A stretch of 64,000 nucleotides of DNA from a virus (taxonomy: Duplodnaviria > Caudoviricetes): positions 1 to 64,000 of the IMG/VR virus record IMGVR_UViG_2832928787_000001; one strand, given 5' to 3'. The position numbers were made by a program, and so were the translations under genes. This document shows positions 23,249-46,839 of this stretch, piece by piece; the first letter of the stretch is position 1, and each line of letters opens with the position of its first letter. The notes under the pieces were generated by a model. That model worked only from the letters and a program-made list of their open reading frames with translations, ran no database searches and was not told where the DNA came from.

Positions 23249-23472
23249 CAGATCCCCCTGCCGCTACGGAACAGCCGGATCTGGCGCGAGCGCCCCGGCT
23301 GCTGGCCGGCTTCGGCCTGGATGCTCTGCCGCAGTTTCAGCAGGTCATTCATGTTGGCCGACTCGTAACGGACGGTCCGGTCGGAAAAACGCACCTCGGT
23401 GACCCGTTCGCCGTTGGCAAGGTTCAGCAGCGCCGCGTCAATGGCAGTCAGGTCGGCAGCGATGAAGGCCAT
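23248..23472 (-). CDS. gpW-like head-tail adaptor
   Basis: 74 aa, GERVTEVRFSDRTVRY; between terL and portal. Confidence 0.75.
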   Translation of the reverse strand: MAFIAADLTAIDAALLNLANGERVTEVRFSDRTVRYESANMNDLLKLRQSIQAEAGQQPGRSRQIRLFRSGRGI

Positions 23473-23473
23473 G

Positions 23474-25423
23474 CTATCTCCGGTTCAGGTAGCCGCTACG
23501 GGTCAGCCGTCGCGGTGCAGGGTGAGAAACGACAGACCCCGCCGGGGCGGGGTCTGGTCTTGCGGGGGTGGCCGGTGCTGGCTGGCCGGGAGGCTGGCTG
23601 TCGAATAGGCCGGTCTGGGCGTACTGGAGCTGCAACTTCTCCCAGTCGGCTGGCTGGAACTTCGCCAGGCCGAGGTAGTGCGCCATGCTCAGGTTGTAAA
23701 CGGCCAGGTCGAAGGCTTCGTTACGCGCCGCCTTCGGTTTGACCCATTCGGTTTTTTTGTAGCCTTTCACAAAGCGGACAATCTTCCGCTCCACCGTCAG
23801 TTGCTCGAAGTAGTCTTCCGGCAGGTCACGGGAGAAGTGGATGGCGCCCGGCCCGTCGAGCAGCCGGTAGCGGTTGGTCAGCCAGTCCTTGGCGGTGTCG
23901 GTACCGATCATCCACAGTTCGCAGCCGTTCTTTTCCGTCTGCCCACGCCAGTTGATGTCGACTTTGCTGGCACGCTGGGCCAGCACCGGCTTCCCCGGTT
24001 TGCTCGCCCCCTTGATGGCCAGGACGTTGCGCCAGCGTCGCAGCCGGCAGAACTGATACACCTCCTGCGCGTGGTGACCACCAGAGTCAATGGCCGTGGC
24101 CTTGATGGTCATGGTGCGGCCGCTCGGGTGGGTAAACTCGGCCAGCAACTGCTCGTCGAGGGCGTCCCATGTCGCCTGTTCGGCCGGGTCGCCCATCAGG
24201 ACGCGGTGGTCGATAACCCAGCTTTCCAGCCCGATCCCCCAGCCCATGACCTTCAGTTCCAGCCGGTTGTCCTGGGTGTCAACGGCAGCCGTCAGCACCA
24301 GCACGCCCGACGGAATGCTGCGCAGCGCGTAGTCCTCGGCGCGGTCCTGCAGCTCTTTGGCCTTGGTTCGCTCCTGGGTGTTGTCCCAGACTTTCGCCAG
24401 CCGGGTGTTGTAGAACACCTGCATCGGCTCCGGGTTGCCGGCCTTCAGGGCGACCATGGCTTCCTCATGCTGCGTCAGCAGTTCGGTCCACGACAGCCAG
24501 CCGAGCGGCATGTACATGGCGTCGATGTGGAACGAGATGGTCTGCCCGTCGCCCTTGGCAGTTGCCCGCCATTCGCCGGACTCCAGCATCCGGGTTTTAT
24601 GGTGCTCGGCAAACAGGCCGCCGCATGCGGAACAGGCGCAGATGACGGACTGGCCATCCACCGACCAGCGCAGTTGCGTGATCTCCAGCACCTGCATTTC
24701 CCCGCAGTGCGGGCACGGCACGAAGTAGCGGCGTTGATCGCCCTTGTCGTGCAGCTCCTTGATCAGGCTCGCCCCGTCGATGGTTGGCGAGCTGGAGTAG
24801 TAGATTTTCCCGTTGTGGCCGAACGTCGTCGCCCGGTTCTCGAACATCTTGATCGGATCGCCCTCGCCATTGAGGTTGCGTTCCCATCGGTCAATCTCGT
24901 CGCCGTACAGATAGCGGGCGGCGATTTCCGCCAGGTTGGCGGCGCTGCCGGCGGTGGTGATGTACAGCGATCCGCCGGCGTATTCCTTGGTGTCAATCGT
25001 GTTCTTGCTGTCGCGGCTGCGCGGTGCGGCCACCTTGCCCTGCAGCACCGGCACGGCGTCGATGGTCTTGCTGATGCGGCCGGACAGGCGCTTCGCCAGG
25101 TTCAGGCTGGGTTCCAGCGCCAGGATATTGCCCGGCGCCATGTGGATCAGCGCTCCCATCCAGTTCAGGAACACCTGAGTCTTGAGCATCTGCGATGCGC
25201 CCATCACCACCACGCGTCGGCAGGGGTGACTGGGGGACAGGCAGCGCATGACCTCCCGTGCGTAGGGTGTGCGATCGGTCCGGTATTTGCCCGGCTCAGC
25301 AGCACCGACATCGGTCGGGATGCGCTGGTATTCGTCAGCCCATTCGTCCACCCACAGGGCCGGGTCCGGGGTCAGGCCCGCAGAGAAGCCGTCCCGGTAG
25401 GCGGTAAATCCGCTGGCGTACAT
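23474..25423 (-). CDS. Terminase large subunit (lambda GpA family)
   Basis: ASQMLKT, YGDEID, SSPT, GDQRRYFVPCPHCG, AIDSGG, RNEAFD. Confidence 0.95.
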   Translation of the reverse strand: MYASGFTAYRDGFSAGLTPDPALWVDEWADEYQRIPTDVGAAEPGKYRTDRTPYAREVMRCLSPSHPCRRVVVMGASQMLKTQVFLNWMGALIHMAPGNILALEPSLNLAKRLSGRISKTIDAVPVLQGKVAAPRSRDSKNTIDTKEYAGGSLYITTAGSAANLAEIAARYLYGDEIDRWERNLNGEGDPIKMFENRATTFGHNGKIYYSSSPTIDGASLIKELHDKGDQRRYFVPCPHCGEMQVLEITQLRWSVDGQSVICACSACGGLFAEHHKTRMLESGEWRATAKGDGQTISFHIDAMYMPLGWLSWTELLTQHEEAMVALKAGNPEPMQVFYNTRLAKVWDNTQERTKAKELQDRAEDYALRSIPSGVLVLTAAVDTQDNRLELKVMGWGIGLESWVIDHRVLMGDPAEQATWDALDEQLLAEFTHPSGRTMTIKATAIDSGGHHAQEVYQFCRLRRWRNVLAIKGASKPGKPVLAQRASKVDINWRGQTEKNGCELWMIGTDTAKDWLTNRYRLLDGPGAIHFSRDLPEDYFEQLTVERKIVRFVKGYKKTEWVKPKAARNEAFDLAVYNLSMAHYLGLAKFQPADWEKLQLQYAQTGLFDSQPPGQPAPATPARPDPAPAGSVVSHPAPRRLTRSGYLNRR

Positions 25424-25988
25424 GGTCGGGGGTCACTTTCTTCAGGTCGTCGGCGCCAATCCGGGCCATGTCATTCAGCGACTGGCGCAGTCTGGCGGTC
25501 AGCACCTGTTCGAGTTCCCACGGATCGGTGATCGCCGCCAGGTCGCTGGAGATCTGTCGTGGCAGCCCCAGCAGGGTGTCGCGCAGCAGCCGCGAATAGC
25601 GGTAGGCCGCGTCATGGACACCCTGCCGGTCAACCGTCATCGCCTCGGCCTTGTCGGCCTCAATCCTGGCGAGCCGGGCCAGGTGCTTTTCTTTCTCGGC
25701 ACGGTTGTGGTGGAAGTCGTTTTCGTTCCCGTTCCCGCCACTGCTCGATGTACCGGGGTTGAGGCTCCCGTAGACATCGCGCTGAATCCGGTGCTGCTCA
25801 TGGCGCTTCTGCACGCCTGCCTTGGCCGGGTCGGCGGTCTTGCCGATCCGGGACAGCGTGGCATCCACATCCACCCGCTTGCCGTCCGGCGCCAGCACCA
25901 GCCGCCCACTGGTCAGCAGCTTGGTCACATAGCTGGGTGACCAGCCCTGACTGGCGGCAAAGCCGGATTTGCTGAGGTATTGGGCCAT
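25335..25988 (-). CDS. Terminase small subunit-like protein
   Basis: N-terminal wHTH-like SKSGFA..GWSPSYVTKL..GRLV; overlaps the terL start. Confidence 0.75.
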   Translation of the reverse strand: MAQYLSKSGFAASQGWSPSYVTKLLTSGRLVLAPDGKRVDVDATLSRIGKTADPAKAGVQKRHEQHRIQRDVYGSLNPGTSSSGGNGNENDFHHNRAEKEKHLARLARIEADKAEAMTVDRQGVHDAAYRYSRLLRDTLLGLPRQISSDLAAITDPWELEQVLTARLRQSLNDMARIGADDLKKVTPDHVRQRIYRLPGRLLCGPDPGPGPVGGRMG

Positions 25989-25993
25989 GGCTC

Positions 25994-26036
25994 TTTCACC
26001 GGATTTGACTGGATTTCACTGGAGTGAAATTTCACT
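25994..26036. repeat. Three 10-bp tandem repeats plus a 14-bp palindrome (candidate terminase-binding site)
   Basis: tttcaccgga/tttgactgga/tttcactgga followed by agtgaaatttcact, just upstream of terS. Confidence 0.55.
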
Positions 26037-26223
26037 AACTTCCAGACCCAGCCGCTAGAAAAAAATCGCGCGTCCCCAGCCGCGTAAGTGGGACAAGGGG
26101 GTCAGGGTCCCCGGCCGATCCGGCGAGCCGGGGCAGGCATGGTGCCGTAACCCCCTGCATTTGCTGGGGATTCCGTGGCTTCGACCCTACTGGCCCCGCC
26201 GTCTGACGTAACGTGCGGCCACG

Positions 26224-26252
26224 AAAAAGCCCGACCTGCAAGGGTCGGGCTT
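26224..26252 (-). terminator. Intrinsic terminator ahead of the late operon (tR'-like)
   Basis: aagcccgacc-N-ggtcgggctt hairpin with U-run on the minus strand. Confidence 0.65.
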
Positions 26253-26319
26253 CGTCTGGACGCAGCTTCTTTAAGCTAGCGGATTCATGGTACTTCAGCG
26301 CAAAGTCAACGTCAACATT

Positions 26320-26784
26320 TCACGCTGCGAATCGTATTTCACCCGCGCCGCGCCGCTTGGCATACCAGCGGACCCGCAGCACATCGACATTGGCAGGCCC
26401 CACATCCAGCGCCGCCTGCAGTGCCATGTGGACCTTGCCGACCCGGTATTCAAACGTGCGGCGCGAGATACCGAGCGCCCTCGCCTTGTCTTCCGGTCTA
26501 CCGCCTCGCTCGTAACGCTCGCGCACCACATCGCGCAATTCATCCGGCAGGCAGGACACGGCCTGGTCGATGTCGATCATCAGGTCCGACGGGCTGTCGC
26601 GCAGCCGGACCGCATGGTCGATTTCGATATGGTCAGTCAGCAGCAGGCTGGACACCCCACTACCACCACCATGCCAGCCCTGGGCGGTTGACCAGCGAGC
26701 CCACTTTTCCAGCAGCCGGTCGATCCAGGGCACCATCTTGCCGGGGCGAACCCCGACCACGTCGATCACTTGCTTCATCATCAA
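26320..26784 (-). CDS. Q-like late antiterminator / sigma region-4-like regulator
   Basis: LLEKWARW, IDQAV..LP, HTH KARALGISRRTF; upstream of late genes; start uncertain. Confidence 0.7.
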   Translation of the reverse strand: MMMKQVIDVVGVRPGKMVPWIDRLLEKWARWSTAQGWHGGGSGVSSLLLTDHIEIDHAVRLRDSPSDLMIDIDQAVSCLPDELRDVVRERYERGGRPEDKARALGISRRTFEYRVGKVHMALQAALDVGPANVDVLRVRWYAKRRGAGEIRFAA

Positions 26785-26847
26785 TCCCCTGATGAATCTG
26801 CCCCTGTGATCCCCTTCGGCCAGTCAATGCCAGCCGTTTTATTGTCT

Positions 26848-27128
26848 TGTGATGTAACTCTTCCAGTTTGTGATGCAAATAACCGGAATGTGATGTTCAG
26901 TGTGATGTAGAGAATCTAATAACCATGCGGGTTTGTGATGCATGTGACGCAATTTCCGGCATTGCTCGCGCATGGGGAAAAAACTGAAGAGGGAGAGGGA
27001 GAACCTGTTTCGTTGCGCACACATGCGCGCGGGAGGGCCGAATTTGCATAACATGCATCACAAACCCCCGTGGATACTGAATCGCGAGCATCACACGCTG
27101 CATCACATTTGCGATGCTGAGCATCACA
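26848..27128. repeat. Convergent TGTGATG/CATCACA iterons (candidate replication origin)
   Basis: TGTGATG at 26848, 26869, 26889, 26901, 26934; CATCACA at 27056, 27089, 27101, 27122. Confidence 0.7.
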
Positions 27129-28839
27129 AACCCTCCTTTTTGGAGACGACACCGGCATCCCGATACGTCTCCCAGCCCTCAACATCCCAGCCAGCATTCA
27201 GCGCAGCAGCTGAAAACCCCATGATGTGACGGCCAAACCAGTCCTGTTTCGGTTCACCCGGATCAGGACGCTGCTCGCGAGGGGTATAGATGGCTTCTTG
27301 CCCGGAGAGGTTTGCGCAGCGCCAGCGCTCGGTTGCGCTGCGCAAGCGGCCCGACAGCATATTCAGAAACTTCCGTTTGGGCAAAATCGTTTTCTCCCGG
27401 CCGCGTTGGCACCATTCGCAATACAGCCCATATAGATGCCAACCCCGGCATGGCATGAACGGCACGCCGAGCGCACCCCGCTCCCACTCATCAATGAACG
27501 CTTCCCAGCCGCTCATACCGAGCCGGATCAGCCGCATGCGTGCCTCGGTGTCCAATGGCTTGGTATGCGGCGTGAACGGCAGCACGGCGTTTTCTGCCGC
27601 GCCAGGCGCGCAATCCGGCAGAGCGAGAGGCAGGGAGAGAAGAAACGCATAGAACGCCGTCACCCCGCCCGCAGCCAATTCGACCTCGACAGCTTTCTGG
27701 TCGGCCTCCGGCAGCTTGCTGTCAGGCCAGATCACCATGAACCGCCGGTCGCTCGATTCGACGTGCGCCGGCATGTACAGGTTCGACAGCATGACGAAAT
27801 TCGCGTGGTTGACCTCCTCCCAGGCATCGACGAATTTGCGCTCGACCACCTGCGTTTTGCCGGTCACCAGGTGCTTGAGCTTGCCGGCCTGCTTATACTT
27901 CTCGGTGTTGTTGCTGATTTCCTCGCCGAGCAGGAACAGCTTGCGCGACCGCCAGCCGGAAAAGCTGCCATCCAGCTGGTCCTGGCCAATCGTGGTCGCA
28001 TACTCGCCATACAGCGGCTTGATGCATTCCTCGAAAAACAGCGACTTGCCCGAGCCATGCACGTCCGAGTGCATCAGCACGCAGGTCGCCATTTTGGCGC
28101 CCGGATGCTGAAGCGGGTACGCCAGCCAGCACATCAGCCACATCCAGACCATTGGGTCGTTGTTGCACAGATGCAGCGACAGCCGGATTATCGCGGCGCA
28201 GTCCGGGAACGCGTCGACCAGATCTGTCGCCCACCGGGCATCGGGCGGGAGGGTGTCGGGGAACACAGCCTGCAGCGGCAGACCCCGGAACTGGTTGATG
28301 TGCGTGTCGGGGTCCACCCGCTGTGTCGGGTCAAACACCAGATTACGCTTGGCGATGATTTTGCGCTGCGGGCTGTTCACCCACAGCTTGAACAGCTCGC
28401 CCATCGCGATCTTGGCTGCCGAGCTGGGGATGACCTCATCCAGCACCGCATCCCACAGCGTGTCGGAGCCATCGAGATACACATAGCGCTCGACCAGCGT
28501 CTGGAACGTCTGGTCATTCTGCACCCGGCGCTGCTCGGCATCGCGGCGGGCCAGTGCAATGTCGGCCGGCAGTGCCGTGCGGCGGTCCTTGTGCGACTTC
28601 CATTCCTCGGCCAGCGGCTTGCCCACCAGCGCCACAAACGCCGGCCACGACATGTCCTGTTGCTGCTGGGTATCGAACACCCGCGTCTTGCCGTGGATCT
28701 GCACATAGCGACCGACCGCCTGCTTGACGTCGATGGGTTCGCTGGTCAGCAGCCCCATGATCTTGCCGTCGCTGGCAATCCCGGTCGCCGCCTCGAATGC
28801 GGCCAGTTGCGGGTCCAGGGCGTTTTGCTCACTCATCAT
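27124..28839 (-). CDS. SF3/D5-like helicase (DUF5906-type) replication protein
   Basis: WLAYPLQHPGAK, Walker A HGSGKS, LGEE, LKHLVTG, SDRRF. Confidence 0.85.
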   Translation of the reverse strand: MMSEQNALDPQLAAFEAATGIASDGKIMGLLTSEPIDVKQAVGRYVQIHGKTRVFDTQQQQDMSWPAFVALVGKPLAEEWKSHKDRRTALPADIALARRDAEQRRVQNDQTFQTLVERYVYLDGSDTLWDAVLDEVIPSSAAKIAMGELFKLWVNSPQRKIIAKRNLVFDPTQRVDPDTHINQFRGLPLQAVFPDTLPPDARWATDLVDAFPDCAAIIRLSLHLCNNDPMVWMWLMCWLAYPLQHPGAKMATCVLMHSDVHGSGKSLFFEECIKPLYGEYATTIGQDQLDGSFSGWRSRKLFLLGEEISNNTEKYKQAGKLKHLVTGKTQVVERKFVDAWEEVNHANFVMLSNLYMPAHVESSDRRFMVIWPDSKLPEADQKAVEVELAAGGVTAFYAFLLSLPLALPDCAPGAAENAVLPFTPHTKPLDTEARMRLIRLGMSGWEAFIDEWERGALGVPFMPCRGWHLYGLYCEWCQRGREKTILPKRKFLNMLSGRLRSATERWRCANLSGQEAIYTPREQRPDPGEPKQDWFGRHIMGFSAAALNAGWDVEGWETYRDAGVVSKKEGL

Positions 28840-29326
28840 TACCCCCTCGCAGTTGCTCCATCATCGCCGCCAGCTGCGGCGACTCCCTGCCCTGCCAGAT
28901 GCCCTGGCCGAACAGCGCCATCCGCTCGCGCTGACGCGCCAATGCCGCAGGAAAATCCCCGACACGAACCGGCGACAGCCCGAGCGGTACCGCCTCGCCG
29001 CCCAGCAGGGTCATTTCGTCCACCTGCACCCCGGACAGCCGCCAGACGGTATTGGCCCGCCCGGCCGTCAGCAGCGCTGCCGAGACAGCAGCGCCCCGGC
29101 CCACGAGTTCCGATTCATCGACAACCAGCACATCGAGCCCAGCCACGAAGTCGAGATTAGTCAGGGTCAGATCAAGATCATCCAGCACCACAATCCGGGC
29201 CAGATCCGGCCGGGCGAACAGCCCGTCACCGGCCTTCCAGCGCCCGACACCGACCACCAGCAACCACAAGACTTCGCGGGCTCGCCGGCGGGCGAATACA
29301 GCATTTCCATAGGCGGGACGCTTCAT
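28829..29326 (-). CDS. Hypothetical phage protein
   Basis: Overlaps its neighbours; FVAGLDVLVVD. Confidence 0.6.
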   Translation of the reverse strand: MKRPAYGNAVFARRRAREVLWLLVVGVGRWKAGDGLFARPDLARIVVLDDLDLTLTNLDFVAGLDVLVVDESELVGRGAAVSAALLTAGRANTVWRLSGVQVDEMTLLGGEAVPLGLSPVRVGDFPAALARQRERMALFGQGIWQGRESPQLAAMMEQLRGGNDE

Positions 29327-29535
29327 GTCCGTTTCCTGTTCATTGCATTCCGCACCAGAGCCCGAATCCGCAACCGCTTGATCCACAGCAGCGTGTTCGG
29401 CATCTTGTCCCGCTCACGCTGCAGCTCCGCTTCGCGGGCCCGCCGGCACAGCACGGCGGCAGCATGTCGCTGCTGCGCTGCTTCCCGGCATGCGACCCGG
29501 TCAAATGTCGGATCTCTGTAGCTTTCATTCATCAC
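29323..29535 (-). CDS. Small hypothetical phage protein
   Basis: 4-bp overlap with the downstream ORF. Confidence 0.45.
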   Translation of the reverse strand: MMNESYRDPTFDRVACREAAQQRHAAAVLCRRAREAELQRERDKMPNTLLWIKRLRIRALVRNAMNRKRT

Positions 29536-29588
29536 CGTCAGCCCTCAATATTTGCAGCTCGACCTGCCAGAACCCCGAAGGAGGCCCC

Positions 29589-30104
29589 ATGGACATCGGA
29601 TCAATCAGTGCAGCCCTTGCTGGCATCAAAGGAACTGTTGAACTCACCTCGGCCGCTATCGCGGTACGCGACAATGCGAAGATCGCCGACGCGCTCAAGG
29701 GTCTGAATGACCGGATCATCGAGCTCCAGAACGTCTGCATTCAGGCTCAAGAGGAATACTCGGCGGCAAAAGAGCAAGTGACTGCGCTCAAAGACGAGCG
29801 TCGCGAGCTGCAGGCTAAAATCGCTGAGCTTTCCCAGCAGGCGGATGACCGTGCGCATTACCAGATTCATCAGCTTTCCGACGGTGCATTCGTTTATGCA
29901 TTCCAGCACGCTGCAGATAACGGAACACCCATGCACTACCTTTGCCAGCCCTGCATGGACAACAGAGGTCAGAAAGCGATACTCCAGCGCGTGCCAGACG
30001 GCACGCACCTGCGTTGCCCGGAATGTCACAATCACTACCTGACCGGCAAACGACTGACCCTGACGCGAGCAGTCGCTCGCAGCCCCTATCTGGGCCGACG
30101 CTAA
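29589..30104 (+). CDS. Coiled-coil plus Zn-ribbon protein (antisense moron)
   Basis: GGAGG RBS; heptad coiled coil; CQPC and CPEC. Confidence 0.75.
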   Translation: MDIGSISAALAGIKGTVELTSAAIAVRDNAKIADALKGLNDRIIELQNVCIQAQEEYSAAKEQVTALKDERRELQAKIAELSQQADDRAHYQIHQLSDGAFVYAFQHAADNGTPMHYLCQPCMDNRGQKAILQRVPDGTHLRCPECHNHYLTGKRLTLTRAVARSPYLGRR

Positions 30105-30219
30105 GCCGGCATGAGCTTGCAGAAGGGGCTGCAATACCTGGCGAGAGGCAAACGGCCGATCAGCCGTCGTAAACAATCGCCGGGATGCCCAGCGCTGAAT
30201 GGCATTGAAGAGTTCCATT

Positions 30220-30375
30220 TCACGTCCCTTTCTGGGGTTTGCTGACTTCTTTCAAAATTCGCCGCATCTCGGCCAGGATCGCCCTGCCCTCGCTGCGCTT
30301 GTCCGGCGCGATCGGCAAATGCCGGATACGCCACTGCAGCGCTCGCCAGTCGTATCGATCGATGACCGGCGGCAT
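30220..30375 (-). CDS. Small hypothetical protein (51 aa)
   Basis: Hand translation MPPVIDRYDWRALQW...; fills the operon gap. Confidence 0.4.
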   Translation of the reverse strand: MPPVIDRYDWRALQWRIRHLPIAPDKRSEGRAILAEMRRILKEVSKPQKGT

Positions 30376-30380
30376 GGCCG

Positions 30381-30848
30381 TCAGTCCGGCTCGCGCATCG
30401 CATCGACCCGCTGCACCAGCTGATGCAACCGGGTTTCCGCCTGATGGACCACCACACGGAAATGATCCATTTCCGAACTGGTAATCCGCCCATCGGCCAG
30501 CATTTCGTGCAGCGCCTCGCCAACATCGCCCTGCCCCTGCCAGACCAGCGCAACCAGCTCCAGCACCGCCATGTCCGAGACCTCGACATCACGTTCCAAG
30601 CGCACGCAGACGTGCCCCTGACTGCGCGCCAGTGCATGCAGGATGCGCAGGTCTCCGGTGAACGACATCAGCTTGTCGGCCTCGACCAGCGTCAGGTGGT
30701 GGCTGTCTTTTTTCTGGTCGACCTTGCTGCACAGCACAGCCGGCGACATGGACCCGCCCGCCCGGGTGACGAAGCGCGGCGCCAGCGCATTTGCGCCCCC
30801 AGGGTGGTCATGGACGGTGGCATAAGCGGCATCAATTACGCTCATCAC
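30381..30848 (-). CDS. CII-like phage regulatory protein
   Basis: VHDHPGGANALA, HHLTL.EA, ADGRIT..E. Confidence 0.8.
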   Translation of the reverse strand: MMSVIDAAYATVHDHPGGANALAPRFVTRAGGSMSPAVLCSKVDQKKDSHHLTLVEADKLMSFTGDLRILHALARSQGHVCVRLERDVEVSDMAVLELVALVWQGQGDVGEALHEMLADGRITSSEMDHFRVVVHQAETRLHQLVQRVDAMREPD

Positions 30849-31137
30849 GGCCCCCTGAAGTCACAGGGTCACCACCGCATTCAGGCGACACCGGTTCAAG
30901 CAACGTATCGATTGCCTGAAGGCCGCGGGGTGGTTGATAACCTTGGCTGATCGCCACCAGTGCCACAGCCGCAACCGAAGAAGGCAGCGGTCGATACACC
31001 TCAAGCGGCGGAATAGCCGAGTGCCCTGCTGCCGATGACAACCGCTTGATCCAGACAGCCCCGTCCTTGAACTCGACCAGCCAGGTCGAGTCCGGGCGGG
31101 CACCCTCTTTCGTGTTCCTGCCGATTACGCTCATCAC
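30832..31137 (-). CDS. Hypothetical protein
   Basis: 101-aa ORF sharing its first five codons with the cII-like gene. Confidence 0.45.
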   Translation of the reverse strand: MMSVIGRNTKEGARPDSTWLVEFKDGAVWIKRLSSAAGHSAIPPLEVYRPLPSSVAAVALVAISQGYQPPRGLQAIDTLLEPVSPECGGDPVTSGGRDERN

Positions 31138-31252
31138 GGGGCCTCATAGACGTGTCATCACGCCAGCGGTGATGACATAGTTGTAAAAAGACCGAACGGA
31201 ACACGTCCGGCAAAAACTCCACGGGGGCAAAACGATCGTGGAGAGGGGGAGG

Positions 31253-31480
31253 TCAGCGACCAGCAGGGTTTCCGGGTTGCAACGATGGGTTGCCTTCATC
31301 GGCTTGGCACTGAAGACCTACCCATGCGGCCCAAGCATCTGGACGCAAGCGGACAATCCGCCCGACGGCCGAGTCCGGTATGTCGTCAGGCCATCCGTGA
31401 ACGCTGGGCGGCTTGATACCAATGGCCCTGGCTGTTCTAGATGGCCCTCCAAAATAAGAGAGGACAAATTGCTTTTTCAT
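31253..31480 (-). CDS. cro: Cro-like repressor
   Basis: YFGGPSRTARAIGIKPPSVHGW; divergent from cI; TATAAT just upstream of the ATG (leaderless). Confidence 0.85.
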   Translation of the reverse strand: MKKQFVLSYFGGPSRTARAIGIKPPSVHGWPDDIPDSAVGRIVRLRPDAWAAWVGLQCQADEGNPSLQPGNPAGR

Positions 31481-31486
31481 GAGGCA

Positions 31487-31551
31487 ATTATAGGCACACC
31501 TACTAGCCACGCACAAGGTATACCTATCGAACAGCCTGTTAGGCTCACCTA
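31487..31551. promoter_or_regulatory. OR region: three TAGG-N4-CCTA operators and PR
   Basis: taggcacaccta 31491, aaggtataccta 31515, taggctcaccta 31540; minus-strand ttgtgc-18-tataat. Confidence 0.8.
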
Positions 31552-31552
31552 C

Positions 31553-32257
31553 ATGACATTGGCTGAACGGGTTACCCTCGCACTGCACGAGGAAGGAAAA
31601 TCACAGACCGAGTTGGCGAAGGCCATCGGAGTACGGCCGCCATCAGTAAACGACTGGGTTTCCGGAAAGACCAAGACCATCAAGGGCGAGAATCTGCTGC
31701 GTGCCGCCAGCTACCTGCGCGTGCGGCCAGAGTGGTTATCCATGGGCCGGGGGCCAATGCGCCAGGAAGACCTGGGCACCCCCATCACAACCCCACTTCG
31801 CCCAGTAAAGTTGATCGACTCTGACGACGAACTGGATGACGGTGCATTTGCCGTGCCCAGGTACACATTGAAGGCCAGCGCAGGAAACGGCGCACCAGTA
31901 TTGGAAATCGACCAGAAAGGCCAATCCAACTACTGCCGGTACAACTGGGCAAACCGAAACGGCTTTCGTAGAGAAGACCTGTTCAGCATCGTCACAATTG
32001 GCGACAGCATGGAGCCGACCATCCCAGATGGCGCCAGCCTCATCGTGCATAAGAGTCAGGACATCGTGAATGGGAAGGTCCACGTCATTTGTCGCGGTGA
32101 CGAGTGTTTCGTGAAGCGCTTGTTCAAGCAGATGGATGGCTCGGTACTGATCAAGTCTGACAACCAGGCCAACTACAAAGACTCTGTTGCCAGACCTGAC
32201 GACGCTGACCCCCTATACGTTGTCGGTCACGTGGTGTCCGTCAGCTTCAACCTGTAG
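31553..32257 (+). CDS. cI: CI repressor (XRE HTH plus S24 peptidase)
   Basis: SQTELAKAIGV HTH, ASAG cleavage site, GDSMEP Ser and VKRL Lys. Confidence 0.93.
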   Translation: MTLAERVTLALHEEGKSQTELAKAIGVRPPSVNDWVSGKTKTIKGENLLRAASYLRVRPEWLSMGRGPMRQEDLGTPITTPLRPVKLIDSDDELDDGAFAVPRYTLKASAGNGAPVLEIDQKGQSNYCRYNWANRNGFRREDLFSIVTIGDSMEPTIPDGASLIVHKSQDIVNGKVHVICRGDECFVKRLFKQMDGSVLIKSDNQANYKDSVARPDDADPLYVVGHVVSVSFNL

Positions 32258-32274
32258 CCAACGCCCTCCCCACA

Positions 32275-32299
32275 AGAGCCCTGTTCACACAGGGCTTTT
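32275..32299 (+). terminator. cI terminator
   Basis: agccctgt-tcac-acagggct followed by T-run. Confidence 0.75.
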
Positions 32300-32337
32300 C
32301 TCATACCAGATTCCAGCAATTCTCCCCAAAGGCAAAT

Positions 32338-32388
32338 TAGGTTCACCTTCAAGTTTCGCTTGACCGGAACAGTAGGCGTGCCTATATT
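32338..32388 (+). promoter_or_regulatory. OL/PL-like promoter with two operators
   Basis: TTGACC(32360)-17-TATATT(32383); operators taggttcacctt 32338 and taggcgtgccta 32373. Confidence 0.8.
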
Positions 32389-32394
32389 TCACCT

Positions 32395-32707
32395 AACGCC
32401 ACGGCAACACACCGCCGACCGATCTCAGGAGCCCCCACGTGGGACCAGACAATTGAGCAGGATACGGATCGATAGCAGGCGGAGAGCGCCTGTCGTAGAC
32501 GGGGTCCCGCCGGCGCCCGAGAAGCCGAGCAAAACCCGCCGAGAGCAACAAGGCGGGCAGTCGGGGGACGAAGCGCACAGATGGCGCCGAGGACGAGCCC
32601 GACAATCGCCGCCCCGTGGCGAGTAACGGGAAAAGGAACGGCCTCGCAAGAGGCCGGTCACCAAAGCAGGCACACGCTGCATGCCATGCCCGCTTTGGCG
32701 ACATTTT
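32395..32707 (+). ncRNA. Candidate structured PL leader RNA (contains repeat copy A, 32535-32702)
   Basis: No credible ORF; successive hairpins, GCAA tetraloop and two possible pseudoknots. Confidence 0.55.
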
Positions 32708-32708
32708 C

Positions 32709-33500
32709 CTATTTGACTTGCGTCGCCAGTACGGCAACGACTTCTTGAGCTGCGCGCCTTTGTTCTGTGGTCAGGCGCCCGCAGTACAGATCGACATTGC
32801 CCTTGTCGCTGTCGTTCACCTTCGGATTGCCGGAGAACAGAATAAGCGCATACCAAGCGCAAGCTCTGACAGGGTTGTACGGAGCGCCCTGGGCACCAGT
32901 TGCAAGACTGTAAGCCGTATTTCGCTGCGCCTGGTAGTCACCGCCCTTGGCTTTTTTCTCCAGTGCCGCGAATGCTTCGGCACCATCGGCCAGTCGCTTC
33001 TTTTCTGCCTCGTCCGCTTCTTGCTCTGATTCAAGTACGGACATATCCGAAACCGGAATGAATTTCTCACCCTCAGGCGAAGAGCACAAAACAGCGCAAG
33101 AAGATTTTGATGTATAAATACCGGGCTTGAATCCGCCCCCCATATCAAAAGTGCAGACATGGCCGCTGGCCGTTCTCATGGCGTCGCCGGTTGTCGGGTC
33201 TCCTTTGACTTTCAACTCGACAGCGACCCCCTTATTCCAGCCATAGTCCGGCGTTTTTGGTAAAGCCGGGCCGGATTCAGCTTTGATGTATTCCAGATCA
33301 TTGGCACCGCTCGCAATATGGCGGCATTCTTTGGCAAATATCTGCAACGCTTTTTCCGCCGGATCGCCCATGGCAGAAAATGATTCACTTTTTTGATATG
33401 GCAAATCGGCGGATTTACTGCATCCAAGTAACGATGCCGCAACAAGAGAAACAGGAAGCAACCATTGCACACGTGTCTTCAGAGATATTTCTTTAGCCAT
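32709..33500 (-). CDS. Lipoprotein with C-terminal Sel1-like segment (moron)
   Basis: LLGC lipobox; GDYQAQRNTAY...ACAWY; own tttaca-16-TGaTAAAAT-type promoter. Confidence 0.75.
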   Translation of the reverse strand: MAKEISLKTRVQWLLPVSLVAASLLGCSKSADLPYQKSESFSAMGDPAEKALQIFAKECRHIASGANDLEYIKAESGPALPKTPDYGWNKGVAVELKVKGDPTTGDAMRTASGHVCTFDMGGGFKPGIYTSKSSCAVLCSSPEGEKFIPVSDMSVLESEQEADEAEKKRLADGAEAFAALEKKAKGGDYQAQRNTAYSLATGAQGAPYNPVRACAWYALILFSGNPKVNDSDKGNVDLYCGRLTTEQRRAAQEVVAVLATQVK

Positions 33501-33575
33501 GATTTCCCCAGGATGAGATAGCCTTCAGGCCATCATTTTATCACATCGGCATATCATGTAAAAACTGAGCGAATT

Positions 33576-33733
33576 CCCGCCGAGAGCAACAAGGCGGGCA
33601 GTCGGGGACGAAGCGCACCGAAGGCGCCAAGGACGAGCCCGACAATCGCCGCCCCGTGGCGAGTAACGGGAAGAGGAACGGCCTCGCAAGAGGCCGGTCA
33701 CCAAAGCTGAATCAGGTGGCTTTGGTGATACAC
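33576..33733 (+). repeat. Structured repeat copy B
   Basis: Near-identical to 32535-32667, then hairpin tcaccaaagc/gctttggtga. Confidence 0.95.
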
Positions 33734-33814
33734 AATGAAACACCTGCCCCTGCCCGGTTTGGCAGGACAGTCAAATCAGGCCAAAATGCCGTCATCATTC
33801 TTAGGAGACGCGGC

Positions 33815-34774
33815 ATGGCCCGGCACAGCAAGAACAGCGACAGTGCAATCTGGATCGGCGTATTTATCCTGGTCGTGGCCCCCATCGCCTTTTTCATCTG
33901 GCTTTATCAGCAGATCGGTGCATGGGGCATCATTGGCGTCGTAGGCATACTGGCGGCCCTCATTGCGACCGGATTCGCCGCTCACTTCTACAAGGAGAAA
34001 ACCGAAGCGGAAGCGCGGACGCAGCGCATCCAGCGTGACCTAGCCGAGATTGAACAGAAGCTGATCGAGGCCCGCCGACTGGGCACAGCACCATCTCCGC
34101 GTGCCATCCCTGAACAGCCCACGCTCAGCGACTTCGAGTGGGTCGGGGGCGGAGAAGCGGTCTCAGCCAACCTGCGGCTCCAGTATAAGGATGCGGCCGG
34201 CAACGTCACTGAGCGCACAGTTGAGGTCAAAGCCTTCACCGAACACCCGGCCGGCGGCATAGAAGCATTCTGCCACCTGCGCCAAAGCCGCCGCTCGTTC
34301 TACTACCACCGCATGCAGAAGGTCGTAGACCTGGACAGCGGCGAGGTCATCCACGAGCCGTGGGCCTGGCTGGATGCTCGCCGCAGGGCATCACCCGATT
34401 TCGCCCTGTCGGAAAACTTGTCCGCCATCTGGCCGGAACTGGAAGTGCTGGTCTATGTCTGCCGGGCAGACGGCCGCATGATGGCGCCTGAACGGGCGCT
34501 GGTTGTCAGCTATATGCAAAAGCGGAAACCTGAGCTATCAACCGTCTCCGTGGCAAAACTGGAAAAGGTACTGAAGGACGACGTAGCAAACCTGAGCCCC
34601 GCGCAATTCAAGCACTGTGTCGCCCAGTGCCGGCAACTGGATGAAGAAGTCCGGTCAGACCTGGTCAGCACGGCGGTAGCAGTTGTTGCGACACAAAGCA
34701 GTGTTGCCGAGGCAGAGGATGTGGCACTGGATTATCTGCATGAAAAATTGCTGGATCATGCTGAGCAGCCATAA
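33815..34774 (+). CDS. 2TM-WYL-TerB-like protein
   Basis: AGGAG RBS; two TM; YKD..GNVTERTV...AFCHLR..RRSF (WYL-like); LVYVCRADG...ER (TerB-like). Confidence 0.7.
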   Translation: MARHSKNSDSAIWIGVFILVVAPIAFFIWLYQQIGAWGIIGVVGILAALIATGFAAHFYKEKTEAEARTQRIQRDLAEIEQKLIEARRLGTAPSPRAIPEQPTLSDFEWVGGGEAVSANLRLQYKDAAGNVTERTVEVKAFTEHPAGGIEAFCHLRQSRRSFYYHRMQKVVDLDSGEVIHEPWAWLDARRRASPDFALSENLSAIWPELEVLVYVCRADGRMMAPERALVVSYMQKRKPELSTVSVAKLEKVLKDDVANLSPAQFKHCVAQCRQLDEEVRSDLVSTAVAVVATQSSVAEAEDVALDYLHEKLLDHAEQP

Positions 34775-34806
34775 ATCGCCCGAGGAACAGAACAAGCCCC
34801 GCTGCA

Positions 34807-34944
34807 GGCAGTCGGGGGACGAAGCGCACAGAAGGCGCCGAGGAAGAGCCCGACAATCGTCGGCCCCTGGCGAGTAACGGGCAAAGGAACGGCCTCGCAA
34901 GAGGCCGGTCACCAAAGCTGAACCAGGTGGCTTTGGTGATACAC
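34807..34944 (+). repeat. Structured repeat copy C
   Basis: Homologous to copies A and B from ggcagtcggggg to gctttggtgatacac. Confidence 0.95.
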
Positions 34945-35080
34945 TTAGCATTTTATTGGTAGACTTGCTCGCACCCAACAGTTTGCTAAATGGCAGCTTG
35001 TACAAAAAAATCAGGCAGGTTTGGGTCAGCAACAGCCCGTTGTGACCGGCTGCTACCGACCCGAAAGCAGACAGTCAAAT

Positions 35081-35141
35081 TGTTAACACCTGAGTTACGC
35101 CGCACCAAAAAGTGGCATCGGTTTTGAATGAATTGTTAGAT
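35081..35141 (-). mobile_element. Integron attC site 1
   Basis: Minus strand ATCTAAC aattc ATTCAA...GCGTAAC tcaggt GTTAACA; resembles aadA-type attC as recalled. Confidence 0.85.
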
Positions 35142-35930
35142 CACACCGAGCAGCCGTAGCACGCCTGCCCCTGCCAGCACAAAGCCGAGAAGCCCATATA
35201 ACCAATGCTCCTTCACAAGCTCCACGATGACAGAAGGATGAAAATGAATTCGATCTTGCCAAGGCGCCTGAATTGCGAGCGTACGGCTATGAGCACGGCC
35301 CGCGAGGTTGGCCATGACATCAACCTTTCGCAGAGTTGATTGATGCAGCTTTACAAACTCCCGGCTATCCCACGCCGCAGCTTCCGCTTTACCTGAGAGG
35401 AAATCTTGGTGGGTAATTTGGTTGAACTTCATGATCGACTCAAGCCGCGGATGGCCAGCGTAGCGAACACCGTAAATTGAGATCAAAACCCTAGATAGAT
35501 CCAGTTTCTTCTCGTCCTTGGTTTCATACGGAGCTCCACCTAGTACACGATGCCTATGCTCCAGCGCTTGGAACCCATAATTAATGTCTCTCATGCTCCA
35601 GTGCAGCCACGTACAATGCGTGTGGGTGGCTGCGAAGGCAAAAAACTCGTCAAGCATCTCGCGCTCAAGGCGATCATAGTGGCTTTCAATGTCCGCGAGA
35701 TCGACCTTCTGAATCTCCGCAATCTTGTGAATCGAGAAAGACCTAGTCTGACCAGAATCCAGCTGCCGGGCGGCGATGCTCGTGATGCGAGGGGTTCGGC
35801 CATCGACGCGATCGTAGAAGCTCTCGCATGAGTAGTGAATCACCAAGCAGTAATGGGCGTTCTTGAAGAGAACGTCGAGGGCTTCTGACGCCTTCTTTCT
35901 CTGCTTGTAGAGATCGAGGTATTTTCCCAT
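35136..35930 (-). CDS. Cassette gene: RNase H/3'-5' exonuclease-like protein with C-terminal TM
   Basis: IHYSCESF, ITSIA, EREMLDEFF, YGFQAL, LDLS; TAA stop lies inside R''; fold call tentative. Confidence 0.6.
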   Translation of the reverse strand: MGKYLDLYKQRKKASEALDVLFKNAHYCLVIHYSCESFYDRVDGRTPRITSIAARQLDSGQTRSFSIHKIAEIQKVDLADIESHYDRLEREMLDEFFAFAATHTHCTWLHWSMRDINYGFQALEHRHRVLGGAPYETKDEKKLDLSRVLISIYGVRYAGHPRLESIMKFNQITHQDFLSGKAEAAAWDSREFVKLHQSTLRKVDVMANLAGRAHSRTLAIQAPWQDRIHFHPSVIVELVKEHWLYGLLGFVLAGAGVLRLLGVI

Positions 35931-35935
35931 GTGTG

Positions 35936-35992
35936 ATCTAACGTTTGAGTTCAACGGACGCAAAGGTGGCCCGCTGGAACGAATGGTTATGT
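35936..35992 (-). mobile_element. Integron attC site 2
   Basis: Minus strand ACATAAC cattc GTTCCAGC...GTTGAAC tcaaac GTTAGAT. Confidence 0.88.
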
Positions 35993-36631
35993 ACCAAAAA
36001 ACTTTCCACCCAACGCAAAAGCGCCGGCCATGAGCACTGCGACGGCAGCCAGAACGCTCCATAGCTGAGTGAGTCTCAAACCACCGACTAGCTCCGCCAA
36101 CGTAAGCTCTGCAGGCCCCTTGGGCAGAGTTGATGTCTTCTTATCCGCAAGCATTTTTTGCTTCCAACTCGCAAGCACACCGTTGAACTCAGTCGTGCTG
36201 AGCGCAGCAGCTTCTGGTTTAACCCACTGTACATACCAATCATTGCCGGGTTCAAGCAATCCTTCGCTCTTTAGACCACTCTCTACGATGACCATTAACG
36301 GGTGGTTTCGGCTATAGGCCATGGCTGCCTCAATTTGGTTCCATGGCGTTGGTAGTTTTATATTAGAAAGTGACACCTCTTTCGAGCCACCGCGTTTCTC
36401 GATGCCGGAAGAAAAATACATACGTTCAAGGGCAATCACAACTGTGCCTGAGCACTCATCTAGAAGGTCGGACACGGTTTTAAGCGGTGCACCAGAACCA
36501 AACGTGTTTCTTCCAACAGTATAAGGAATCAACCCCTCGCTTCGAAGTCTGTCTTCAACTGCGCGGACGAAGGCTTCCTGCGAGTCTGTAGCTGTGCCAC
36601 CCACGCTAACAAAAACATTCAATTCATTCAT
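35987..36631 (-). CDS. Cassette gene: TIR-like domain protein with C-terminal TM
   Basis: NVFVS, ECSGTVVIAL, TPWNQIEAAMA (Glu), PLMVIVE; TAA stop inside R''. Confidence 0.7.
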   Translation of the reverse strand: MNELNVFVSVGGTATDSQEAFVRAVEDRLRSEGLIPYTVGRNTFGSGAPLKTVSDLLDECSGTVVIALERMYFSSGIEKRGGSKEVSLSNIKLPTPWNQIEAAMAYSRNHPLMVIVESGLKSEGLLEPGNDWYVQWVKPEAAALSTTEFNGVLASWKQKMLADKKTSTLPKGPAELTLAELVGGLRLTQLWSVLAAVAVLMAGAFALGGKFFGT

Positions 36632-36664
36632 GACAGGTCGTTCCGATTCATTGAATTGATTTAT

Positions 36665-36724
36665 ACCTAACAAACAAGATAAGCCGACCGCCGAAGCCGG
36701 GTCGGCTTGAGCGCCGGGTTAGAC
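36665..36724 (-). mobile_element. Integron attC site 3
   Basis: Minus strand GTCTAAC ccggc GCTCAAGC cgacc...ggtcg GCTTATC ttgttt GTTAGGT. Confidence 0.9.
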
Positions 36725-36793
36725 ATCATAAGATGCGACGGCAGCTCTCAGCCACGATGTGCCTTCGGGTATGTATTTCTTAATGTTGCTCAT
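36719..36793 (-). pseudogene. 24-aa ORF of a mini, probably internally deleted, cassette
   Basis: MSNIKKYIPEGTSWLRAAVASYDV; starts after GTTAGAG (36809-36803) and stops in R'' of attC3. Confidence 0.5.
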
Positions 36794-36906
36794 GCTCAAA
36801 GTCTCTAACTAGCTTTAGAAGGCACGCAACCAGCATGTTCAGTTCGCCTAAGACTGTATGAATTTTGGGTCAGTAGGCAAATTAGCTGTTTCGGCGTTTC
36901 GGTGTT

Positions 36907-36918
36907 TAGGCAAACCTA
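36907..36918. promoter_or_regulatory. Distal CI-type operator
   Basis: taggcaaaccta is a perfect TAGG-N4-CCTA. Confidence 0.55.
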
Positions 36919-37086
36919 AAAATTATGACCCCAGCTTTTGATGACGAATTTAGATCAATGTCTGAATGGCCACCATTGGCCGATAGCCGCCCCCGCTACC
37001 AAAACAGCCAAAGCCTCATCACACTTGCGTTTTATTGACATAGGCATAGCCAATTTATCACGACAAACACCAATCGACTACCCCCC

Positions 37087-37111
37087 GCCCAGCCCTGTGC
37101 TGGGCTTTTTT
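37087..37111 (+). terminator. Intrinsic terminator before the early-left genes
   Basis: gcccagc-cctgt-gctgggc plus T6. Confidence 0.75.
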
Positions 37112-37132
37112 CGCCTCCAAGGAGCACTGAAC

Positions 37133-37501
37133 ATGCGCATCGCAACTGAACAACTGGCCGACATCCGTGGCGGCCTGATGGTCGAGGAACTGACCGAGTC
37201 CCTGGCTGAAGTCGTCAACGCCGTCATCACCACCGGCAAGAAGGGCGCCGTGCAACTGAAGCTGGACATCAACCCCGCCAGCAAGGGCGACGCCGTGGTG
37301 ACGGTGACTGACGAGATCAAGAAGACCGTACCGCAGGAGAAGCGCACCGGCACGCTGATGTTCGCCACGCCGTCCGGCTCGCTCCAGCGGCAGGACCCGC
37401 GTCAGACCGATCTGCCCCTGGTCTCGACATCGGCCACGATGCCGACGCTGCAGTCCACTCCCACCGAATCCCCGTCGCTGCGCGTCGTCGGCGGCAACTG
37501 A
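37133..37501 (+). CDS. Conserved phage protein upstream of DUF2303 (YfdP-like)
   Basis: AAGGAG RBS; TGKKG..LKL.I.P and FATPSGSL.R.DPRQ. Confidence 0.75.
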   Translation: MRIATEQLADIRGGLMVEELTESLAEVVNAVITTGKKGAVQLKLDINPASKGDAVVTVTDEIKKTVPQEKRTGTLMFATPSGSLQRQDPRQTDLPLVSTSATMPTLQSTPTESPSLRVVGGN

Positions 37502-37528
37502 TTTCCCCACCCAACCGAAAGCCCCCCC

Positions 37529-38374
37529 ATGAACACCGAAAAGAACATTGTCGAATCGGCCATTCAGGCCGCAAGCAAGCCGTTTCTGATGGACATCAGC
37601 GGCACCCCGGTTCTGCTGATGCCCGATTGCAATGGTGGCTGGTCGCGCCAGGAACTGGACAAATACCGTACCGAGCCGCTGCGCAAGACTGGCGCAGTGG
37701 TCCTGCATCAGCTCGACAGCCTGCTGGCCTTCATCAAGGAGCACAAGGAATCCGGTACCCAACTGTTCGTCGATGCCGACTATGCGCAGGGCCGTGCGTC
37801 GTTCAAGGCCGTGCTCAACGGCCATACCGGCCCCCAGCCTGACTTCGGCGACTTCACGGCGCTGTACACCCCGATGAAGACGGTCGACTGGTCGAACTGG
37901 CTGGAAAGCAACGGCAAGAAGATGGACCAGGAAGAATTCGCCCGCTTCCTGCAGGACAACATTGCCAACATCGTCAGTCAGGATCCGGCCAATAGCAGCC
38001 GCCAGTACCCGGCCGCAGCCGACCTGCTGGAATTCGCCAGCAATCTGGAAATGACCAGCACCGTGCGCTTCCGCAGCAGCACCAAGGTGCAGAACGGCCA
38101 GGTGCAGTTTGAGTACGTCGAAGAGGGCGACAACAACACCAAAGGCCGTCTGCAGATGTTTGAGCGCTTCGGCCTCGGTCTGCAGCCGTTCGCAGGCGGT
38201 GACGCCTACTTCATCGAGGCGTTCCTGCGCTTCCGCATCGACCGCAACAGCGGTGAACTCAAGCTGTGGTACGACCTGAACCGCCCGGACAAGGCCCTGG
38301 AAAACGCCACAGAAAAGATGATCGAGCGCATCAAGGTCGAATCGGGCGTGCCGGTCTATTTCGGCAAGGCGTGA
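37529..38374 (+). CDS. DUF2303 / YfdQ-family protein
   Basis: AVLNGH, QEEFARFLQDN, LKLWYDL.RP, PVYFG. Confidence 0.82.
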   Translation: MNTEKNIVESAIQAASKPFLMDISGTPVLLMPDCNGGWSRQELDKYRTEPLRKTGAVVLHQLDSLLAFIKEHKESGTQLFVDADYAQGRASFKAVLNGHTGPQPDFGDFTALYTPMKTVDWSNWLESNGKKMDQEEFARFLQDNIANIVSQDPANSSRQYPAAADLLEFASNLEMTSTVRFRSSTKVQNGQVQFEYVEEGDNNTKGRLQMFERFGLGLQPFAGGDAYFIEAFLRFRIDRNSGELKLWYDLNRPDKALENATEKMIERIKVESGVPVYFGKA

Positions 38375-41618: not shown

Positions 41619-41956
41619 CTGATCCTGCAGACCTTGCCGGCTGCCAGTTCGGCCGGCTGACTGTATCCGGTCCGTCAGATGTCAGGATATTCCGCGGGCG
41701 CACCGTTCTCTGCCGGTGTCGCTGCGGCGGTTCTATCTGCGTCCGTCCCGGTGACCTGCGCAAAGGAAAGGTGAAGTCCTGCGGCTGCTACCGGCGCGAG
41801 CTGGCGCTTGCAGCGCTTCAGCGGGCGAACCAGCCCGAGGCCAGGTCAAGGCAACTGGTCTCGGCCAACAGGACGCGGCATCGAAAACAGATTTTGGCGC
41901 TGGGGTCCGTTACCACCACCCGCCAATACATCGACGGTCAACCTGCCCCGCTATGA
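41615..41956 (+). CDS. N-terminal domain typical of HNH/AP2 homing endonucleases, nuclease part absent
   Basis: DLAGCQFGRLTV, CRCRCG, KSCGC. Confidence 0.6.
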   Translation: MTDPADLAGCQFGRLTVSGPSDVRIFRGRTVLCRCRCGGSICVRPGDLRKGKVKSCGCYRRELALAALQRANQPEARSRQLVSANRTRHRKQILALGSVTTTRQYIDGQPAPL

Positions 41957-46587: not shown

Positions 46588-46839
46588 ATGACAACCGACG
46601 AAATCGTGCCATTTGACGAGCTGGCAACAGTTTCCGGCTACAAACGACCGCGCTGCATAAGAGACTGGCTGGACGCCAACAGAATCCGCTACCTGCAGAA
46701 CGCCAGCGGCAGACCAATTGTTGCCCGGTCCACGTTTATGCAAGCACTGGGTGTCAAACCAATCACCATTGACCCCACGCCGTTACGCGGAATCAATACC
46801 GCCAACCTTGACCATCTCCACGCGCAGAAAAGAAAATGA
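46588..46839 (+). CDS. Excisionase (DUF4224-like)
   Basis: ELATVSGYKR...WL..N.I...GRPIV; overlaps the integrase start. Confidence 0.75.
   Translation: MTTDEIVPFDELATVSGYKRPRCIRDWLDANRIRYLQNASGRPIVARSTFMQALGVKPITIDPTPLRGINTANLDHLHAQKRK

Follow-up and report, generated by a model that had tools for sequence, protein, structure and literature searches.

A putative leader RNA of no described family behind the early-left promoter of a lambda-like provirus and its possible role in antitermination

Directly behind the early-left promoter of a lambda-like provirus lies a segment of 313 nucleotides (32395-32707) that appears to be a conserved, folded leader RNA of no described family. The window, that is, the whole stretch of 64,000 nucleotides that was analysed, is contained in the 88.7-kb record of this provirus. 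As modelled here, the RNA would combine a sequence-conserved 5' domain with a hairpin-rich 3' domain of six helices and an end hairpin, possibly with a pseudoknot. The function that we prefer, which appears plausible if somewhat short of probable, is that of a cis-acting processive antiterminator that works like the put RNA of phage HK022 or canT of Tn916, without being a member of the put family.

The early-left promoter and the extent of the leader

The features that frame the leader, from the structural genes to the end of the first copy of its 3' domain, are arranged as follows.

Structural genes, terminase and primase, minus strand
30381-30848, minus strand: CII-like gene
31253-31588, minus strand: frame of a Cro-like gene
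31554-32257 (about), plus strand: CI repressor gene, with HTH and S24 peptidase domains; its own terminator lies 3' of cI
32338-32384: left operators, TAGGTTCACCTT at 32338-32349 and TAGGCGTGCCTA at 32373-32384, the latter overlapping the -10 element
32360-32388, plus strand: early-left (PL-type) promoter, TTGACC-17-TATATT, located 3' of cI and its terminator
32395-32514, plus strand: 5' domain of the leader, helices P0-P3, present only in the promoter-proximal copy
32515-32705, plus strand: 3' domain of the leader, copy 1, helices P4-P9 and the pseudoknot pairing

The TTGACC-17-TATATT element is the best sigma-70 match of the region. Palindromes of the operator type TAGGNNNNCCTA, which is matched eight times in the 64 kb when at most one mismatch is allowed, are found at three positions in the cro-cI gap (31491, 31515 and 31540) and at two positions at PL (32338 and 32373); because the palindrome type of the cro-cI gap recurs there, the promoter at 32360-32388 appears to be repressor-controlled and to occupy the PL slot. 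The same operator logic, with a different palindrome, is seen at the PL of a related phage contig, G001, and both the repressors and the operators differ among the three phages that bear the RNA, namely, the window phage (G000), G001 and the prophage of genome G286. One more palindrome of the operator type, the exact TAGGCAAACCTA at 36907-36918, is located 4.5 kb from PL, between the last accessory cassette and the terminator t1 that are described below, and is possibly a third repressor site. Two other features of these prophages can be mentioned here. The integrase gene of the window (46836-47924) may be broken: it is read as two ORFs, 46836-47252 and 47301-47924, which align with consecutive portions of phrog_1. 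In G286, an ORF of 346 residues is located between cI and PL (L019 1962-3002, minus strand); by eye, its product resembles ClpP/SDH-type serine proteases, and a PADLOC scan gave no hit.

The preliminary description of this locus, which was made from the sequence alone, depicted a large structured leader that follows an operator-overlapped promoter and contains no credible ORF, and this holds: the sole frames within 32395-32707 are one that opens with a TTG in the promoter and antisense frames that run into the next gene, and none is credible or conserved. A mini-ORF behind the AGGAG at 32429 was considered and ruled out, its GTG start not being kept in the relatives. No tRNA-like or tmRNA-like genes were detected by ARAGORN in the region 31000-38000. 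Comparison of the 64 kb with Rfam 15 yielded no matches at the gathering score, and within 32250-35150, a 17-bit microRNA model was the only match at E ≤ 10.

On the plus strand, the predicted fold of the 313 nt is more stable than expected from shuffled sequences (z = -4.0, with none of the 100 shuffles as good), compared with z = -2.4 on the minus strand. This stability resides in the 3' part (z = -4.6), the 5' 120 nt being unexceptional on their own (z = -0.3). The base composition of the leader is strongly skewed, with 9.3% U (4.8% in the core) versus 25-30% A, and in the aligned pairs, G-U cells outnumber A-C cells (9 versus 4). By these sequence measures, that is, the skew of A over U, the excess of G-U over A-C and the difference in fold stability between the strands, the plus strand is the RNA strand. 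We infer that the leader is transcribed from PL as drawn.

Relatives, conservation and predicted structure

In the collections that were searched, the RNA is rare: apart from the window phage, it is carried by the IMG/VR contig G001 (loci L004 and L005) and by the genome G286 (L019), the prophage of which is also represented in IMG/VR (L032). In a blastn search of the order sample, G286 was the single carrier among 401 genomes, and the same method yielded no further carrier among 9 genomes of the G286 family and 68 genomes of the G002 family. Neither the core nor the full RNA gave a match to phages, plasmids or 20,395 E. coli records in the distant mode of blastn; scans of viral contigs with DNA patterns and one protein recovered nothing beyond L004/L005 and L032; and there were no matches in scans of metagenome contigs or in a scan of genome contigs with a 23-mer. 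Parts of a 701-nt query are contained in 20 sequencing runs from 13 studies, there being no RNA runs among the 24 runs listed for this query, and variants of the RNA are present also on contigs, probably of DNA, from three coded isolates. A covariance model of the leader RNA, denoted R1, gave weak matches in 4 of the 68 genomes at E ≤ 0.01. The best of these (24.8 bits) is false because it sits inside a P-type ATPase gene, and the remaining ones score between 15.5 and 19.9 bits.

The conservation of the RNA has sharp bounds. Among the three phages, the identity of the 5' domain amounts to 0.93-0.95 and that of the 3' core to 0.80-0.98, whereas the flanks of 150 nt are at the level of the shuffled baseline of 0.58 (upstream, 0.57-0.65; downstream, 0.56-0.58). 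The homology begins ~7 nt past the -10 element, at the transcription start, and stops at the last hairpin. In G286, an insertion of ~430 nt (L019 about 1070-1490, read on the minus strand), flanked by a 15-bp inverted repeat, splits the 3' domain between the pseudoknot and P8; it carries, on the opposite strand, a short ORF whose product finishes with a hydrophobic peptide of 28 residues and looks like a type I toxin.

The G286 genome also encompasses a cas1/cas2-adjacent CRISPR array of 21 repeats of 29 nt (L026 1228-2460), which we take to be type I-E-like. Two of the 20 spacers in this array match the window phage: the protospacer of spacer 5 (32 of 32 nt) is at 32667-32698 on the plus strand, inside the end hairpin of copy 1 and with AAG immediately 5' of it (32664-32666), and that of spacer 8 (31 of 32 nt) is at 22403-22434, in the portal gene. 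Given these two matches, the G286 lineage has met a near-identical phage.

The structure of the leader was drawn by hand, with 11 helices and 60 pairs, and assessed in an alignment of five copies. Its elements have the following coordinates.

P0: 32402-05/32414-17
P1: 32439-46/32503-10
P2: 32452-56/32469-73
P3: 32475-81/32487-93
P4: 32511-14/32524-27
P5: 32535-40/32552-57
P6: 32560-65/32598-603, with the inner helix P6a at 32573-76/32584-87
P7: 32607-10/32618-21
Pseudoknot pairing: 32613-17/32626-30
P8, the GCAA hairpin: 32639-45/32650-56
P9, the end hairpin: 32657-67/32692-702

All the stems named in the preliminary description are present where it had placed them; the long-range pair that it proposed was confirmed as the 8 bp of P1 (32439-32446/32503-32510), and at the site of the proposed pseudoknot, both the hairpin and the loop pairing exist (32607-32630). 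A further long-range pairing, CCCCC with GGGGG, which appears in the single-sequence fold, was ruled out, G286 retaining the C run without the G run.

Standard pairs occupy 95.5% of the 242 cells of the aligned helices, versus 32-41% when the partners are slid by 1-3 columns. Compensatory double changes from G-C to A-U affect three pairs, one in P4 and two in P6, a number that is reached in 7 of 500 column shuffles. Covariation is thus seen in part of the structure, namely, P4 and P6, whereas the pseudoknot and P7 are kept with one-sided changes only. P1 is mismatched in two lineages, P8 is swapped in G286 for a different hairpin in the same spot, and the stem of P9 is maintained around four different loops. 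In the isolate variants, a U-G pair becomes C-G in P1 and a G-U pair becomes G-C in P3; in addition, one P2 pair is broken (32455 G>C), and 3 nt are inserted at the P1/P4 junction. The structure was derived from the same sequences and only three lineages are involved, so that the evidence from pairing and covariation is supportive rather than conclusive; the covariation is thin because it comes from three phage lineages and from variants that are known as difference lists only.

Repeated 3' domains, accessory cassettes and a conserved terminator

Direct repeats of the 3' ~170 nt of the leader, three copies in all (starting at 32515, 33562 and 34779), were overlooked in the preliminary description; the copies alternate with cassettes of accessory genes. 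Between copy 1 and the core early-left genes, the order is as follows.

32709-33562, minus strand: cassette 1, a lipoprotein-like gene (32709-33500, phrog_5882) convergent with the leader, with its own promoter, TTTACA-16-TAAAAT, at 33562-33535
33562-33735, plus strand: 3' domain copy 2, lacking the 5' domain, with 96% identity to copy 1 in a BLAST alignment of 133 nt
33759-34774, plus strand: cassette 2, a gene for a two-transmembrane protein (33803-34774), with a promoter-like site at 33759-33787
34779-34945, plus strand: 3' domain copy 3, with 94% identity to copy 1 in a BLAST alignment of 115 nt and with the P5 hairpin deleted
35136-36673, minus strand: cassette 3, two overlapping ORFs (35136-36062, phrog_8766; 35987-36673, no family)
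37087-37111, plus strand: terminator t1, GCCCAGC-CCTGT-GCTGGGC followed by a T run, 22 nt 5' of the first core early-left gene
37133-37501, plus strand: first core early-left gene, encoding a phrog_204 protein
Further core early-left genes, plus strand: DUF2303, ParA-like protein, RNase T-type exonuclease, HNH and DNA methylase

The 88.7-kb record contains three matches to the copy sequence, all on the plus strand and within 32515-34918; when the copies are compared with copy 2 without gaps over 130 nt, the identity is 84-93%. Copy 3 starts 5 nt past the stop codon of cassette 2. Because the 5' edges of the copies differ in register (33562 versus 34779) and copy 3 has lost P5, the most satisfactory explanation of the extra 3' copies seems to be that phages with the leader in common exchanged cassettes.

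The protein encoded in cassette 2 has two predicted membrane helices, a WYL-like stretch (PADLOC PDLC03787, E 8.7e-9) and a weak match to SLATT_1 that falls under the Pfam cut-off; judging from these features, it resembles an effector of defence or abortive infection. In G001, the gene for this protein, which is 92% identical, directly follows the single copy of the RNA.

When read on the minus strand, P8 together with a T-rich tail fits the pattern of an intrinsic terminator in all three copies (32639-32656, 33679-33696 and 34890-34907), and these minus-strand terminators may stop the transcripts of the convergent cassettes. Because P8 is terminator-like on the opposite strand in all copies, part of the conservation of the leader may serve the convergent genes. 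After P9, there is a short T run in copy 1 only, with nothing terminator-like behind the other copies or in G001; accordingly, the RNA does not obviously constitute a gene of its own.

The operon that the preliminary description had placed downstream of the leader does exist but starts only at 37133, the adjacent gene (32709-33500) being on the opposite strand. The distance from PL to 37133 is 4.7 kb, and the sole plus-strand gene within it is 33803-34774; it is because of the intervening accessory cassettes that the first plus-strand core gene starts so far from its promoter. The intrinsic terminators previously noted at 37087 and 40225 are real pattern matches. The first of these, the strong terminator t1, is common to all three carriers of the RNA (L005 9205 in G001; L033 14983-14963, minus strand, in G286), with a compensatory change from A-T to G-C in the stem and with the loop kept, and the terminators at 41944 and 42942 of the window recur in G286. 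Four relatives that share the phrog_204 and DUF2303 genes and lack the RNA (L007-L010) were also scanned for terminators, and in none of them did the scan pick up one on the plus strand immediately before the phrog_204 gene; L008 and L009 have a PL-like promoter within ~100 nt of that gene. The RNA is thus combined with a variable cassette zone and with t1 in 3 of 3 carriers versus 0 of 4 non-carriers, although this co-occurrence may reflect a single inheritance event. Just upstream of t1, a block of ~110 nt (36960-37085; L005 9095-9200) that includes a TTGACA and a weak -10 candidate is conserved between the window phage and G001 and not in G286; the block may represent a second promoter or, alternatively, encode a small RNA terminated at t1.

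Possible modes of action of the leader

To our knowledge, very few elements (put, EAR and canT) achieve processive antitermination by RNA alone. The preliminary description had suggested a put-like RNA, and the positional part of this suggestion stands: as in HK022, the leader starts at +1 of a repressor-controlled PL in a phage of lambda-like layout, no N-type gene is recognised and terminators are located downstream. That no N-like gene is evident, as noted originally, agrees with a scan of 30 ORFs, in which no PHROGs match was named as an N or Q antiterminator. Membership in the put family, in contrast, fails. For put, PMC9378689 describes an RNA of ~70 nt with two stem-loops that suppresses both intrinsic and Rho-dependent termination, putL being located just past PL, and an alignment of ten put sequences is included in the supplement of that article. 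The leader, with its 271-310 nt and 11 helices, is a much larger structure than the put RNA described there. Furthermore, the first 68-72 nt of the three RNAs contain no -10-like TAnnnT, whereas putL has a -10-like pause element, and the host of the leader is a betaproteobacterium-like lineage rather than E. coli. A covariance model of HK022 putL (L036 6225-6312, minus strand) and putR (7450-7540), denoted R2, with self-scores of 98-104 bits, gave no match at E ≤ 10 in the leader, L005 or L033 and a single 9.8-bit match elsewhere in the window; in the reciprocal search, R1 did not match HK022 22000-31000.

The system that is closest in logic is canT of Tn916, to which the leader can be likened by description only. 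According to PMC11658703, canT is a 452-nt region that yields a cis-acting, orientation-specific RNA and is paired with an insulating terminator, T1, which keeps the downstream genes silent until the proper promoter fires. The pair of PL-leader and t1 follows the same logic, in a different type of element and in a host from a different phylum. The comparison with conAn of pLS20, likewise by description only, is less close: as outlined in PMC8191782, this processive antitermination system of a mobile element reads through multiple terminators and is bipartite, whereas no partner protein was found for the leader.

The reasoning behind the antiterminator reading can be laid out as a sequence of events. 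We infer that read-through is caused by the leader itself: after induction, the emerging leader RNA would make the transcribing RNA polymerase termination-resistant in cis; the modified polymerase would then cross several kb of untranslated and partly antisense cassettes, pass t1 and the later conserved terminators, and thereby gain access to the genes for recombination, exonuclease, methylase and integrase. PL would be shut in the lysogen, where t1 would halt the transcripts that start at the cassettes' own promoters. Because copy 3 lies downstream of the cassette 2 promoter, this model needs the 5' domain or P5 to be essential; were the 3' domain active alone, lysogenic transcripts of cassette 2 would also pass t1. 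The following also speaks against the antiterminator: unlike HK022, the phage has no copy of the element in the rightward (PR) operon, and the 5' domain is not more stable than shuffled sequences. It is possible, too, that a small antiterminator protein went unrecognised, the scan having covered only 30 ORFs.

A more elaborate form of the antiterminator reading, which we put forward as speculative and on balance rather doubtful, is that the leader represents a new RNA-only antiterminator of ~300 nt, structurally unrelated to put, that together with t1 brackets a 'cassette bay' behind PL. Lysogen-expressed accessory genes would pile up in such a bay, each exchange leaving behind a copy of the 3' module, and these genes would neither leak into the lytic early genes nor block them after induction.

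Among the alternatives, the one that survives best, unlikely as it appears, is an early, possibly processed non-coding RNA with a different job, such as a trans regulator or decoy for host take-over, an anti-defence RNA or a regulator of the cassettes. In its favour, the RNA forms a conserved island, self-contained and with an end hairpin of its own, and the 3' domain, retained in additional copies, acts as a module in its own right; moreover, carrier genomes are under CRISPR pressure from the window phage. WYL domains bind nucleic acids in other systems, and the next gene in two of the phages encodes a WYL-like stretch, so that the RNA could, for example, be the ligand of the neighbouring WYL-type membrane protein. 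However, G286 carries the RNA without the WYL gene, the T run that follows P9 is confined to copy 1, and neither a target nor complementarity was identified.

Somewhat less probable still is a nut-like platform onto which an unrecognised phage or host protein would be loaded, with antitermination or another form of elongation control depending on that protein. The arguments from position and terminators apply here exactly as they do to the RNA-only antiterminator, and the 5' domain is conserved in sequence without a strong predicted structure, as a protein-binding site might be. The transcript from PL of phage lambda begins with a structured untranslated leader of a few hundred nucleotides, and in this respect, the locus resembles lambda nutL/N. 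N proteins are small and diverge quickly, and the scan for them covered only 30 ORFs. Nevertheless, the boxA-like motif GCTCTT is absent from the plus strand of all three RNAs, the GCAA hairpin is not kept in G286, no N-like gene follows the leader, no plus-strand ORF between PL and t1 is common to the three phages, and no PHROG match among the 30 ORFs is named antitermination protein.

About equally improbable is the absence of any dedicated RNA function, in which case the segment would be a linker for recombination that phages share and that borders the immunity module; its hairpins would serve the convergent accessory genes as terminators or insulators, and its copies would be scars of cassette exchange. 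This possibility accounts readily for the terminator-like character of P8 and its T-rich tail on the opposite strand in all three copies, for the location of copies 1 and 3, and of the 3' part in G286, next to the 3' ends of opposite-strand cassettes, for the 5' edges that differ between copies as random joints would, and for the damage that the P5 deletion inflicted on copy 3. It leaves unexplained, however, the retention of a 5' domain with 93-95% identity in three phages that differ in immunity, the compensatory changes in P4 and P6, neither of which is terminator-like on either strand, and the extreme skew of A over U; furthermore, the single copy in G001 has no convergent gene beside it.

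Finally, hardly any credence can be given to a CsrA/RsmA sponge or a self-cleaving ribozyme, the alternatives of the preliminary description, for which the GGA motifs and the complex fold could be cited: the nine GGA triplets are what shuffling yields (8.4 ± 2.0 in 1000 dinucleotide shuffles, 454 of which reach 9), which deprives the sponge of its sole basis, and no Rsm-type, ribozyme or other family was matched in Rfam at the gathering score, which leaves self-processing without support.

The locus bears on the question of how lambda-like phages that lack N read through their early terminators outside E. coli. It is also a compact test case, with a sharply bounded RNA and a conserved terminator 4.7 kb downstream, for which natural variants are at hand, including copies that consist of the 3' domain only, one without a hairpin, and compensatory changes. 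If the antiterminator reading is true, it suggests how accessory genes that are expressed in the lysogen could accumulate in a phage between the early promoter and the early genes, without mis-expression of either gene set.
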